A stretch of DNA of 64,000 bases from Dictyostelium discoideum (lineage: Eukaryota), in NCBI GenBank assembly GCA_000004695.1, contig CM000152.2, positions 352,001 through 416,000 of the forward strand. Reading direction: 5' to 3'. Within the stretch, counting starts at the first letter, position 1. Each line of letters opens with the position of its first letter. Both the position numbers and the translations under genes were made by a program. Positions 60,650 through 63,787 of the stretch are shown here, piece after piece. The notes under the pieces were generated by a model, which saw only the letters and a program-made list of their open reading frames with translations, did no database searches and was not told the origin of the DNA.

Positions 60650-62044
60650 ATGAAAGTTTTATTATTATTGGTTTGTTTAGTTTTTGCTTATGTTAATGCA
60701 AGTTATGATGCATGTTACAATGTAGTTTGTCCAAGTAACTATCAATGTAGAGCTGAAGGTGATCAAGCTTATTGTGTACCAGAACATCATGAGTATGGTT
60801 GTGATAGACATTCATGTGGTCGTGGTTATGAATGTGTTGAGCGTTGGGATTCCTTTTGTTGTAAACCAATTCATCACCGTCCACACCCACACCCACGTCC
60901 ACCACATCCACACCCACGTCCAACCAATTGTGATTACACTTCTTGCCCAAGAGAATTTGATTGTCATGTAATCAATAGAAATGTCACTGCTTGTTTACCA
61001 GATAACCATGTTTGCAGAGATTTCCAATGTCCAGTAGGTACTCATTGTTTCAATGGTGAAAGAGGTCCACACTGTGTAAGTGATACTCATTATCCAAATT
61101 TATGTCGTGTAACCAAATGTTCATATGATTTCACTTGTAAAATGGTTAGAGGTAATCCAACTTGTTTAAGAAATCATGATGGTATTTCAACCCATTCTCC
61201 AACCCATACCCCAACCCATTCTCCAACCACCTCTCCAACTCATTGTCCATCTTGTACCGAATTAGCTCCATTTTGTCATTCTGCAGGTTTGGTTTGTAGA
61301 ACTATTCTTAATCCATCTTGTGTTTCTGCAGTAAGAGGTATCATCAATACTAGATCTTGTTGTACCTATATTGCAGTATGTGCTTCAAATTCAACTTCAA
61401 CAACTGGCGCTACTACTGGTGCTACTACACCCACAAGCACAACTGGTGCTGCAACTACCGCTGCTGCTACTACCACTACAGCCACAAGTACAACTGGTGC
61501 TGCAACCACTGCCCCAGCAACTACTACAACCACAAGTACAACTGGTGCTGCAACTACTGCCCCAGCAACTACAACCACAAGTACAACTGGTGCTGCAACC
61601 ACTGCCCCAGCAACTACTACAACCACAGCCACAACTATAGTAGGTGTTACCACTGCTAATTCAGTAGGTGGTTTAACTACTACTAGAGCAACAACAGTTG
61701 CTGGTGTCACTACTGCTAATTCAGTAGGTGGTTTAACTACTGCCGGCATTACAACAGTTGCTGGTGCCACTACTGGTAATTCAGTAGGTGGTTTAACTAC
61801 TGCTAGAGCAACAACAGTTGCTGATGTCACTACTGCTAATTCAGTAGGTGGTTTAACTACTGCCGGCGTTACAACAGTTGCTGGTGCCACTACTGGTAAT
61901 TCAGTAGGTGGTTTAACTACTGCTAGAGCAACAACAGTTGCTGATGTCACTACTGCTAATTCAGTAGGTGGTTTAACTACTTCTAGAGCAACAACAATTG
62001 CTGGTGCCACTACTGCCAATTCAATAGGTGGTTTGACAAATTAA
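60650..62044 (+). CDS. Secreted Cys-rich protein with a His/Pro motif and C-terminal Thr/Ala/Gly-rich tandem repeats (spore-coat / extracellular-matrix-like)
   Basis: Signal peptide MKVLLLLVCLVFAYVNA. There are five units of the Cys pattern C..V.CP..Y.C.......C, a HPHPRPPHPHPRP motif, then 16-aa (TTGAATTAPATTTTTS) and 20-aa (TTVAGVTTANSVGGLTTARA) tandem repeats running to the stop at 62042-62044. Confidence 0.75.
   Translation: MKVLLLLVCLVFAYVNASYDACYNVVCPSNYQCRAEGDQAYCVPEHHEYGCDRHSCGRGYECVERWDSFCCKPIHHRPHPHPRPPHPHPRPTNCDYTSCPREFDCHVINRNVTACLPDNHVCRDFQCPVGTHCFNGERGPHCVSDTHYPNLCRVTKCSYDFTCKMVRGNPTCLRNHDGISTHSPTHTPTHSPTTSPTHCPSCTELAPFCHSAGLVCRTILNPSCVSAVRGIINTRSCCTYIAVCASNSTSTTGATTGATTPTSTTGAATTAAATTTTATSTTGAATTAPATTTTTSTTGAATTAPATTTTSTTGAATTAPATTTTTATTIVGVTTANSVGGLTTTRATTVAGVTTANSVGGLTTAGITTVAGATTGNSVGGLTTARATTVADVTTANSVGGLTTAGVTTVAGATTGNSVGGLTTARATTVADVTTANSVGGLTTSRATTIAGATTANSIGGLTN
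61426..62040 (+). repeat. Coding tandem repeats: about 4 units of 48 bp, then about 6.5 units of 60 bp
   Basis: The 60-bp unit is tcagtaggtggtttaactactgcYagagcaacaacagttgctgRtgYcactactgSt. It lies within the CDS, not a CRISPR. Confidence 0.85.
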
Positions 62045-62384
62045 AATTTTAATCAAAACAGAAACACCTAAAACAAGAAATGGAAAACGTAAATAAAATT
62101 TTAATTTATTTAAATTTTTTTATTTTAGATTTTATTTTTTATTTCTAAATTTTATTTTTTTATTTTTCTATTATATTTTTTATTTTTTTTTATTTATTTT
62201 ATTTTATTTTTACTTTTTTTATTTTATTTTTACTTTTTATTTATTTTATTTTTATTTTTAATTTTATTTTTAAATTTATTTATTTTGTTTTTATTTTTAA
62301 ATTTTATTTTTATTTTTATTTATTTTATTTTATTTTATTTTTACTTTTTTTTATTTTTATAAAGATTTAGAACAATTTGATGAT

Positions 62385-63290
62385 ATGACTGGGATCTCTA
62401 ATATTAATTTTTTTGATTTATTAAAAAAGGTTGAATTTTTAATAAAAAAAAAAAAAGATAATAGAGGTCGAAAACAAATTTATAAAACAAAAGAAAAATT
62501 ATTTGTCACCTTGTTTCACATGAGGCATTATACAAGATTAATTGTTTTAAATAAGTTGTTTGGTATTAGTGCATCTACATTCACTAGGATATATGATGAG
62601 ATATTGGATATACTTTTTCAATTATCATTAGGATAATTTTGAAGAGGTTTTTAAAAATAGATTTAATGAAGAAACAAGCTGTGTAGATTATGAATCTCCA
62701 GATGTTGGTCTGGCAACAATTACAATGGTAGTTGATGGATCAGAGCAGCAAATTACGATTCCATTAGATGAAGATGTCAAAAACATTTTATACAGTGGGA
62801 AAAAGGGTAAATCTACTCTAACCTTATTGGTTTATTGTTGTCCAAAATCTGGGAAAATATTACACGTAGGTTCAACATGTGGCGGAAGTAACAATGACAT
62901 CAATTTGTTTGAGAGAGATAAAGACTTTATATCAAAATAGGAAAAAGAAAAAGAATTTATATTAGGTGATAGAGGATTTGTTGGTGTTGGAAGGTTAGTA
63001 TTAACTATTCCAAAAGGTAAAAGAGATTATGAACAGAAACAAACAGATATAGATCAAAAATCAATAAGAATAATTATTGAAAATGTGTTTGCTAAAATAA
63101 AAAGATTCTTTATTACAAGTATGCCACTAAGATATAAATTTTCAGTAGGATCAATTGATATGGATAGTGTTCAAGAAAAACACCACAAAACATGGTGTGT
63201 TGTAGGCTATATTATAAATTTGTTTAAACCAATAAGAGATCTAAAAAAAAATCTTAAAAAAATGACAATAAATAATAAAATAATTTAATA
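62385..63290 (+). mobile_element. Degenerate PIF/Harbinger-like DDE (DDE_Tnp_4) transposase relic
   Basis: Frame 0 (62385-62636) encodes an HTH-like N-terminus ...KQIYKTKEKLFVTLFHMRHYTRLIVLNKLFGISASTFTRIYDEIL. Frame 1 (62638-63290) encodes VVDGSEQQITIPLDEDVKNILYSGKKGKSTLTLLVYCCPKSGKILHVGSTCGGSNNDINLFE...GDRGFVG...IIIENVFAKIKRFFI, the Harbinger DDE_4 blocks DGTHI.I, KG..S.N, GS.HD, GD.GY and E..FG.LK.RFR.L. The copy is interrupted by a +1 frameshift at about 62636 and an in-frame TAG at 62938-62940. Confidence 0.6.
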
Positions 63291-63451
63291 ATGAATTTAT
63301 TATAATCAATGATTTTTTAATTGTTCACTATTTTTTTTTTCCATATGAAATTAATATAAAAAAAAAAGAAAAAAAAACAAAAAAAAAAAATTTTTTTGAT
63401 TTTTTTTGATTTTTTTTTTTGGTGGGATCCATGATAAATTGTTTGGATAAA

Positions 63452-63486
<35 letters not shown>

Positions 63487-63730: not shown

Positions 63731-63787
<57 letters not shown>

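Follow-up and report, generated by a model that had tools for sequence, protein, structure and literature searches.

The question raised by this locus is what lies behind a transposase-like coding remnant in the 64-kb stretch of Dictyostelium discoideum DNA analyzed here (the window): a broken mobile element, the decayed copy of a host gene, or a fragment acquired from bacteria. The segment 62364–63434 is a dead, 5′-truncated transposon fragment, more damaged than an earlier note on this DNA had held. It very probably represents an inactive copy of a cut-and-paste transposon of the IS5/PIF-Harbinger (DDE_Tnp_4) supergroup of dictyostelid genomes. The features on which this reading is based are listed below; TIR denotes terminal inverted repeat, P0009 is a full-length relative from D. 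cf. discoideum, and L001 and L004 are loci carrying full-length copies.

62098..62360, no strand assigned: AT-rich tandem array (Tandem Repeats Finder), adjoining the truncation point and standing where the 5′ half of the element would be
62364..62633, plus strand: coding remnant in the first frame, corresponding to P0009 residues 407–495 (tblastn of P0009, Pfam)
about 62490–62621, plus strand: HTH_Tnp_4 match within the first-frame remnant (Pfam)
62631..62636, plus strand: site of a 1-nt insertion, GGATAA here and GAAAA in relatives (alignment with L001, frame translations)
62635..63288, plus strand: coding remnant in the second frame, with its natural stop TAA at 63286–63288 (frame translations, Pfam, tblastn)
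about 62731–63141, plus strand: DDE_Tnp_4 match within the second-frame remnant (Pfam)
62938..62940, plus strand: in-frame TAG stop, TTA (Leu) in L001 and L004
63289..63420, plus strand: 3′ untranslated and subterminal region (blastn to L001 and L004, three-way alignment)
about 63332–63358, plus strand: conserved motif TTTTTTTTTTCCATATGAAATTAATAT within the 3′ subterminal region
63421..63434, plus strand: degenerate 3′ TIR GGTGGGATCCA followed by TGA; full-length copies read GGTGAAAGTTA, and 9 of 14 positions match

Domains, lesions, and boundaries of the relic

When the frameshift-corrected translation of 62385–63288 was compared with Pfam, matches were obtained to PF13359 DDE_Tnp_4 (E 9.1e-19, 68.1 bits, cut-off 24.8) and to PF13613 HTH_Tnp_4 (E 1.5e-10, 40.9 bits, cut-off 27). 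The catalytic triad is complete, with D at 62734–62736 (VVDGSEQ), D at 62968–62970 (LGDRGF), and E at 63079–63081 (IIIENVF), and the D-D-E spacing agrees with the D..K..D..D..P..R(3)E signature of IS5, PIF, ISL2EU, and Spy transposases (PMC4122938). The identification of a transposase relic with DDE_Tnp_4 and helix-turn-helix regions, made originally from the sequence alone, is borne out by these scores and by the intact triad.

Three-frame translation of window positions 62340–63320 revealed exactly one frame change and one internal stop between 62364 and 63288. The first frame (...KDLEQFDDMTGISNINFF...ILDILFQLSLG) ends at 62633, and the second (DNFEEVF...MVVDGSEQQ...DFISK*EKEKEFILGDRGF...IRIIIENVF...NNKII*) starts at 62632/62635 and runs to 63288. 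In alignment, the frame change corresponds to a 1-nt insertion, the window reading GGATAATTTTG where intact relatives read GAA-AATTTTG; the internal stop is the TAG at 62938–62940. The earlier description of a dead copy with one frameshift and one in-frame stop is therefore accurate. The same lesions are present in assembly GCA_054883475.1, which is 99.6% identical to the window over a 9.4-kb overlap.

The earlier note had placed the start of the sequence at an ATG at 62385 and had regarded the helix-turn-helix region as the N terminus, and neither assignment survives comparison with full-length relatives. Alignment of the truncation point puts the onset of protein homology 21 nt earlier, at 62364, a point approximately 20 nt past the start of the parent gene's last exon. 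P0009 aligns to the window by tblastn over residues 407–698 only, such that the first ∼406 of ∼700 residues are absent, and the same search found no N-terminal exons upstream of the relic anywhere in the window. The copy is thus truncated at its 5′ end, and both a Cys-rich part of ∼400 residues and the 5′ TIR are missing.

On the 3′ side, DNA homology to full-length copies passes the stop codon and reaches about 63424–63434. By blastn, homology to L001 ends at 63423 and to L004 at 63424, at 78–80% identity; in a three-way alignment the 3′ end of the relic, GGTGGGATCCA plus TGA, matches up with the 3′ ends of full-length copies. The degenerate 3′ TIR proper spans 63421–63431, and the TGA at 63432–63434 is probably the surviving target-site copy of the relic. 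Neither a 5′ TIR nor a second copy of the target-site duplication (TSD) was found at the locus. Within the window, TIR-motif matches are no commoner than in shuffled sequence, and tblastn detected no further copies besides the relic.

Full-length relatives and element anatomy

Loci encoding seven relatives (L001, L004, L006, L007, L008, L009, and L015) were taken for element anatomy. Full-length relatives measure 2.4–2.9 kb and lie at unrelated loci in assemblies of wild D. discoideum and D. cf. discoideum. The subfamily of the relic comprises L004 (D. cf. discoideum), L001 and L006 (D. discoideum, GCA_054859355.1), and L007 (GCA_054859385.1), which share a common unit of ∼2.4 kb at 85–98% identity within unrelated flanks; L001 and L006, both from one genome, are 98.4% identical, with a Ks of 0.017 in the last exon. 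Elements of this subfamily start with TAAYTTTCACCAAAA... and are bounded by inverted repeats, 5′ TAATTTTCACCAAAA... and 3′ ...TTTTGGTGAAAGTTA. The TIR pair of L001 extends over 46 nt at 85% complementarity, its sequence outside an 18-nt specific core being A/T low complexity, and the same termini occur in L004, L006, and L007. Across full-length relatives the specific TIR core measures 18–22 nt. A second subfamily is formed by L008, L009, and L015, each on a separate contig of a single D. cf. discoideum genome and 97–99% identical over 2.9 kb; the TIR of this group (labeled subfamily-3) is TAATATTCCGCAAAATAAA. Near-identical copies at different loci of a single genome imply transposition in the recent past and, as far as sequence can tell, indicate that elements of this family have recently been active in wild D. 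discoideum and D. cf. discoideum.

The elements contain only a Cys-rich ORF or exon and a transposase ORF or exon. L009 carries two clean ORFs, of 416 aa (Cys-rich) and 312 aa (HTH plus DDE), with a 345-nt AT-rich spacer between them that is modeled as an intron in gene annotation. The best full-length protein is P0009 (701 aa), the corresponding gap in L004 being an 89-nt GT..AG intron, and its N-terminal ∼400 residues include a coiled-coil stretch and two Cys-rich motifs. In current models the Cys-rich part and the transposase form one spliced gene; they could also be two consecutive ORFs. Pfam comparison of the Cys-rich N-terminal regions returned no THAP, zf-FCS, Myb, or BED domain, only subthreshold noise. 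A first impression of an FCS/MYM-type finger in the Cys-rich region was left unconfirmed by Pfam, and a sequence search of the PDB with the family profile gave no match at E values up to 1.

Among the full-length copies examined, intact ORFs were found in L009 only, and most others carry lesions: L001 contains stops, L007 is cut by a retroelement, and L008 is without its 3′ end. Two copies adjoin retrotransposon genes, as in regions rich in transposable elements. The number of annotated loci or gene models differs among assemblies (at least 8, 4, 3, and 1, as counted from annotated proteins). L006 is damaged by a nested insertion of ∼571 bp resembling a MITE (2429–2999) in the 5′ part of the transposon copy, directly after ATGTTAATG. 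This insertion has a TIR, CTATCAGTGAATAATTGA, an inner inverted repeat, GATCGAGTTATCCCGGAA, and AATG on both sides; no copies of it are present in the window, and it could be a known Thug or DDT-S element.

Probable target-site duplication

Three-nucleotide direct repeats flank all five complete copies, reading TGA...TGA in L001, L004, and L006 (3/3) and TCA...TCA in L009 and L015 (2/2). These are not the TAA or TTA duplications that the earlier note had anticipated. Since the flanking trinucleotide is invariant within each subfamily, it could in principle be element sequence. Two observations point instead to the host as its source. First, outside TGA or TCA there is no other direct repeat, even in copies that are 98–99% identical. 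Second, an uninterrupted version of the 5′ flank of L007 was found at L001 1615–1790; it is near-identical up to ...AAAAAATTGA, which ends in TTGA, and diverges exactly at the start of the L007 TIR, TAATTTTCACC, as expected if TGA is the host target of insertion. The alternative arrangement, with TGA or TCA as part of the TIR and a TSD outside it, was rejected given the lack of an outer repeat and the empty-site paralogue. We infer, mainly from this one paralogue and the pattern of direct repeats, that insertion duplicates a 3-bp T-G/C-A target.

The empty-site comparison concerns one intergenic spacer of a repeat-gene family. Paralogous repeat-containing genes lie on both sides of the transposon copy in L001 (3267–4354 and 7343–9634), and a homologue of this L001-flanking gene, at 87–92% identity, is present on the upstream side in L007 (793–2810).

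Surroundings of the relic

The array at 62098–62360 has periods of 5, 6, 40, and 131 nt and includes three copies of TTTTTACTTTTT (Tandem Repeats Finder). This motif was also found in the intron of full-length elements by alignment with intron-containing copies, and the array may have arisen by expansion of intron sequence or may be intergenic DNA unrelated to the element. Farther upstream, an ORF at 60650–62044 encodes a protein of 464 aa that starts with a hydrophobic leader and has Cys-rich modules and Thr-rich tandem repeats (60-nt units); this product has no Pfam match and, judging from sequence, appears to be secreted. This Cys/Thr-rich gene is unrelated to the transposase. A paralogous Thr-rich repeat gene is located just past the end of the window (in the region 9956–13395 of L002, the corresponding locus of GCA_054883475.1), so that the relic lies between two members of a repeat-gene family.

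A gene model in GCA_054883475.1 (L002 7431–13395; window 62061 onward) begins 36 nt past the stop of the upstream gene, encodes 2244 aa, and spans the AT-rich array, the relic, and further sequence. It looks like an annotation artefact in which the dead transposase has been fused with a downstream gene. Two homopolymers, T30 (63456–63485) and A47 (63732–63778), differ in length between the window and L002, as is ordinary for Dictyostelium intergenic DNA.

Mobile element or host gene

On the very probable reading given at the outset, of a dead copy of a cut-and-paste transposon, the last ∼295 codons survive, covering the HTH and the DDE catalytic domain, along with the 3′ untranslated region and a decayed 3′ TIR with TGA; the 5′ inverted repeat has been lost, as have some 400 codons for the Cys-rich N-terminal part. 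With the insertion and the stop codon, no transposase would be made from the fragment, and the fragment itself would presumably not be mobilized. The parent element, as reconstructed from its anatomy, would be a TIR-bounded unit of 2.4–2.9 kb in which the Cys-rich region is followed by HTH_Tnp_4 and the DDE domain, and it would insert at T-G/C-A, leaving this 3-bp target in duplicate. By comparison with IS5 and PIF/Harbinger, the inverted repeats may be bound by the HTH and Cys-rich parts, and DNA would be cut and rejoined by the D-D-E triad.

The principal alternative is that a domesticated, HARBI1-like host gene decayed to leave the relic, which never belonged to a mobile element. Several properties of the relic are consistent with such a gene: a Ka/Ks of 0.09–0.15 at a Ks of 0.7–1.1 against its relatives, which denotes long purifying selection; the GT..AG intron of the D. 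cf. discoideum model P0009; the lack of a 5′ TIR; fixation with identical lesions in two assemblies; and the catalytic triad, still intact. However, purifying selection is equally expected among active transposase lineages. Low Ka/Ks at high Ks implies that most of the divergence arose under coding constraint and that the copy was inactivated late in the history of its lineage, with which the small number of lesions in the relic agrees.

An intron-containing domesticated gene had been named in advance as the finding that would overturn the transposon reading. The intron does exist, but the closest relatives of the relic are TIR-bounded, multicopy, nearly identical within a genome, and situated at unrelated, nonsyntenic loci, which makes a mobile element much the likelier source. 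The relic also retains 3′ subterminal noncoding sequence and a TIR remnant, for which a host gene would have no need. The variation of copy content between assemblies and the two copies beside retrotransposon genes likewise favor a mobile element, and a syntenic intact orthologue was not found. We consider a host-gene origin improbable, and the relic is taken below as the remnant of a transposon. In itself it is an ordinary dead transposon remnant with no function, and annotators should mask it, the GCA_054883475.1 gene model already running across it.

Distribution and affinity of the family

Family members were found in Cavenderia, Heterostelium, Polysphondylium, Synstelium, D. firmibasis, and the D. 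discoideum complex. The proteins nearest to the relic are all dictyostelid (38–84% identity; best homologue E 1.5e-129), followed by proteins of heteroloboseans and of AT-rich metagenome contigs that have the same Cys-rich partner. A family HMM was built from 17 dictyostelid proteins. It scores the relic at 443 bits, the AT-rich metagenome relatives at 184–196 bits, two heteroloboseans at 121–157 bits, cyanobacterial and Deinococcus IS5-like proteins at 68–80 bits, and vertebrate HARBI1 at 0–13 bits. HARBI1 was the sole PIF/Harbinger representative in this comparison, and the grouping is by score; the vertebrate set was retrieved with a HARBI1 query that is 94–97% identical to named HARBI1 entries. 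By Pfam, HARBI1 consists of DDE_Tnp_4 and Plant_tran (PF04827) without HTH_Tnp_4, and the relic has no Plant_tran match. The curated model NF033581 transpos_IS5_4 scores the relic at 28.8 bits against a cut-off of 140, and the closest metagenome relatives are similarly low.

The family is placed by sequence in the IS5/PIF-Harbinger supergroup. Because the HMM favors bacterial IS5-like proteins (68–80 bits) over HARBI1 (13 bits or less), "Harbinger" is valid only in the broad IS5/PIF sense; the earlier assignment to PIF/Harbinger holds to that extent, and closeness to HARBI1 or a place within canonical PIF/Harbinger is not supported.

One of the metagenome contigs (L010 1–2965, and L011) is labeled as a Fervidobacterium sp. 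MAG, has 33% G+C, and carries 22-nt TIRs (TTGGGTCGTTAGGAAATTCGGA). Its Cys-rich ORF shows homology to the N-terminal region of the dictyostelid proteins, a separate HTH plus DDE ORF follows 20 nt downstream, and the 5′ part has what looks like a 35-nt GT..AG gap. The contig is probably mis-binned eukaryotic or other non-Thermotogota sequence. A reading of the metagenome relatives (∼280 aa) as bacterial IS elements was considered and is doubted, given the 33% G+C and the Cys-rich partner ORF on the one contig examined. The occurrence of the same Cys-rich partner on the Fervidobacterium-labeled contig indicates that the partner is old in the lineage, and the partner may be a separate protein.

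A second alternative is that the fragment was taken directly by horizontal transfer from an insertion sequence of the bacterial IS5 family; a horizontally acquired fragment was one of the two origins that the earlier note had put forward. Bacteria are the food of Dictyostelium. The HTH_Tnp_4 plus DDE_Tnp_4 architecture is common to cyanobacterial and Deinococcus IS5/IS1182-type proteins, which show 22–30% identity over 77–95% of the query and, as given above, outscore HARBI1 with the dictyostelid HMM. However, bacterial proteins come after dictyostelids, heteroloboseans, and AT-rich metagenome contigs in order of relatedness, and the spread of the family across Dictyostelia and the GT..AG intron of the P0009 model speak against an acquired fragment. 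The parent element has a spliceosomal intron, and it carries an N-terminal extension of ∼400 aa, as compared with total lengths of 302–332 aa in three bacterial proteins. The score under the NCBIfam IS5 model is far below its cut-off. The G+C content of the relic (28–31% in 500-nt windows) also matches the range of other sequence in the window; the whole stretch is strongly AT-rich, and its coding parts have about 28–45% G+C, as fits Dictyostelium. Direct transfer from a bacterium therefore appears highly improbable, more so than a host gene. That the eukaryotic lineage as a whole derives from a bacterial source in the distant past is a separate claim and is possible. Of the two origins proposed, the low-copy family, undescribed in the literature searched, is the right one.

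Finally, AT-rich genomes give many low-complexity ORFs and the flanks of the relic are simple repeats, but a chance ORF without real homology can be dismissed in view of a Pfam E value of 9e-19 with all three catalytic residues, a best homologue at E 1.5e-129, and a family HMM score of 443 bits.

Place among Dictyostelium transposons

In a 2017 review, the DNA transposons named are Tdd, DDT, and Thug alone, and their transposases are described as unlike known ones (PMC5633606). By that description, the clear DDE_Tnp_4 protein of the present family argues against identity with any of the three. A full-text literature search returned no papers tying Dictyostelium to Harbinger or ISL2EU elements, in agreement with the earlier supposition that the relic falls outside the described Dictyostelium families. 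In databases, the AX4 fragment DDB_G0267216 is already tagged "DDE Tnp4 domain-containing protein."

A recognizable DDE_Tnp_4 family is a modest, checkable addition to the catalogue of D. discoideum DNA transposons (PMC5633606). Its TIRs are clean, its 3-bp target is defined, and wild isolates carry near-identical copies. Should the laboratory strain prove to be without autonomous copies, an intact element of the L009 type could be tried in it as a native tool for transposition.

Comparison with known transposon systems

The dictyostelid family resembles PIF/Harbinger, including HARBI1, in its DDE_Tnp_4-type core with the D..K..D..D..P..R(3)E signature and conserved triad, in the TIRs of its full-length members (only a degenerate 3′ TIR being present in the window), in a probable 3-bp T-N-A duplication, and in a separate, putative DNA-binding region upstream of the transposase domain. 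Like IS5, PIF/Harbinger elements produce 3-bp TSDs, and they carry a Myb/SANT ORF (PMC4122938). The dictyostelid target is TGA/TCA, as opposed to TAA/TTA (TWA), and a Cys-rich region with no Pfam match stands in place of the Myb/SANT ORF; at the protein level, the dictyostelid transposase differs from HARBI1 in having HTH_Tnp_4 and lacking Plant_tran (PF04827). Pfam found no Myb/SANT domain in P0009, P0010, P0002, P0007, or the first ORF of L009, and the window holds no homology to the element upstream of the relic; the Myb-like companion ORF suggested previously did not materialize.

Bacterial IS5 proteins of the HTH_Tnp_4 plus DDE_Tnp_4 type (Nostoc, Allocoleopsis, and Deinococcus plasmids) have the same two-domain core of ∼300 aa and are annotated as "transposase family protein" or "IS5/IS1182 family transposase." Apart from the 22–30% identity noted above, the likeness extends to the 3-bp TSDs that are also found in IS5 elements (PMC4122938). 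In contrast, the dictyostelid elements are eukaryotic, measure 2.4–2.9 kb, include an 89-bp GT..AG intron in the P0009 model, and bear the ∼400-aa Cys-rich, coiled-coil N-terminal extension or ORF that distinguishes them from the three bacterial proteins examined (302–332 aa); the curated NCBIfam IS5 model remains far under threshold (28.8 versus 140 bits).

ISL2EU and Spy belong to the same catalytic supergroup. ISL2EU resembles the dictyostelid family in that its transposases bear an N-terminal zinc finger, and Spy in having an N-terminal HTH and no Myb ORF. As described, ISL2EU elements carry a THAP finger and a YqaJ exonuclease ORF and generate 2-bp TSDs (PMC4122938), whereas the dictyostelid repeat is 3 nt, and neither THAP nor YqaJ was found by Pfam in the Cys-rich regions even at E values up to 10. 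Spy elements are described as inserting at an AAA/TTT junction (AAA|TTT) with no TSD (PMC4122938); no AAA|TTT junction is seen at the flanks of L001, L004, L006, L009, or L015, which have a 3-nt repeat.

Taken together, these comparisons suggest a broader proposal, offered tentatively and rated somewhat below even: that the dictyostelid elements form a distinct eukaryotic IS5-like lineage apart from PIF/Harbinger, ISL2EU, and Spy, common to Dictyostelia, Heterolobosea, and unidentified protists. Such a lineage would have a Cys-rich partner replacing Myb and a T-G/C-A target, would be nearer to cyanobacterial-type IS5 than to HARBI1, and would still be mobile in wild strains of the D. discoideum complex, the 64-kb window showing only its relic. 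The closeness to bacterial IS5-like transposases, combined with the Cys-rich partner, is relevant to the diversification of the IS5/PIF supergroup among protists.
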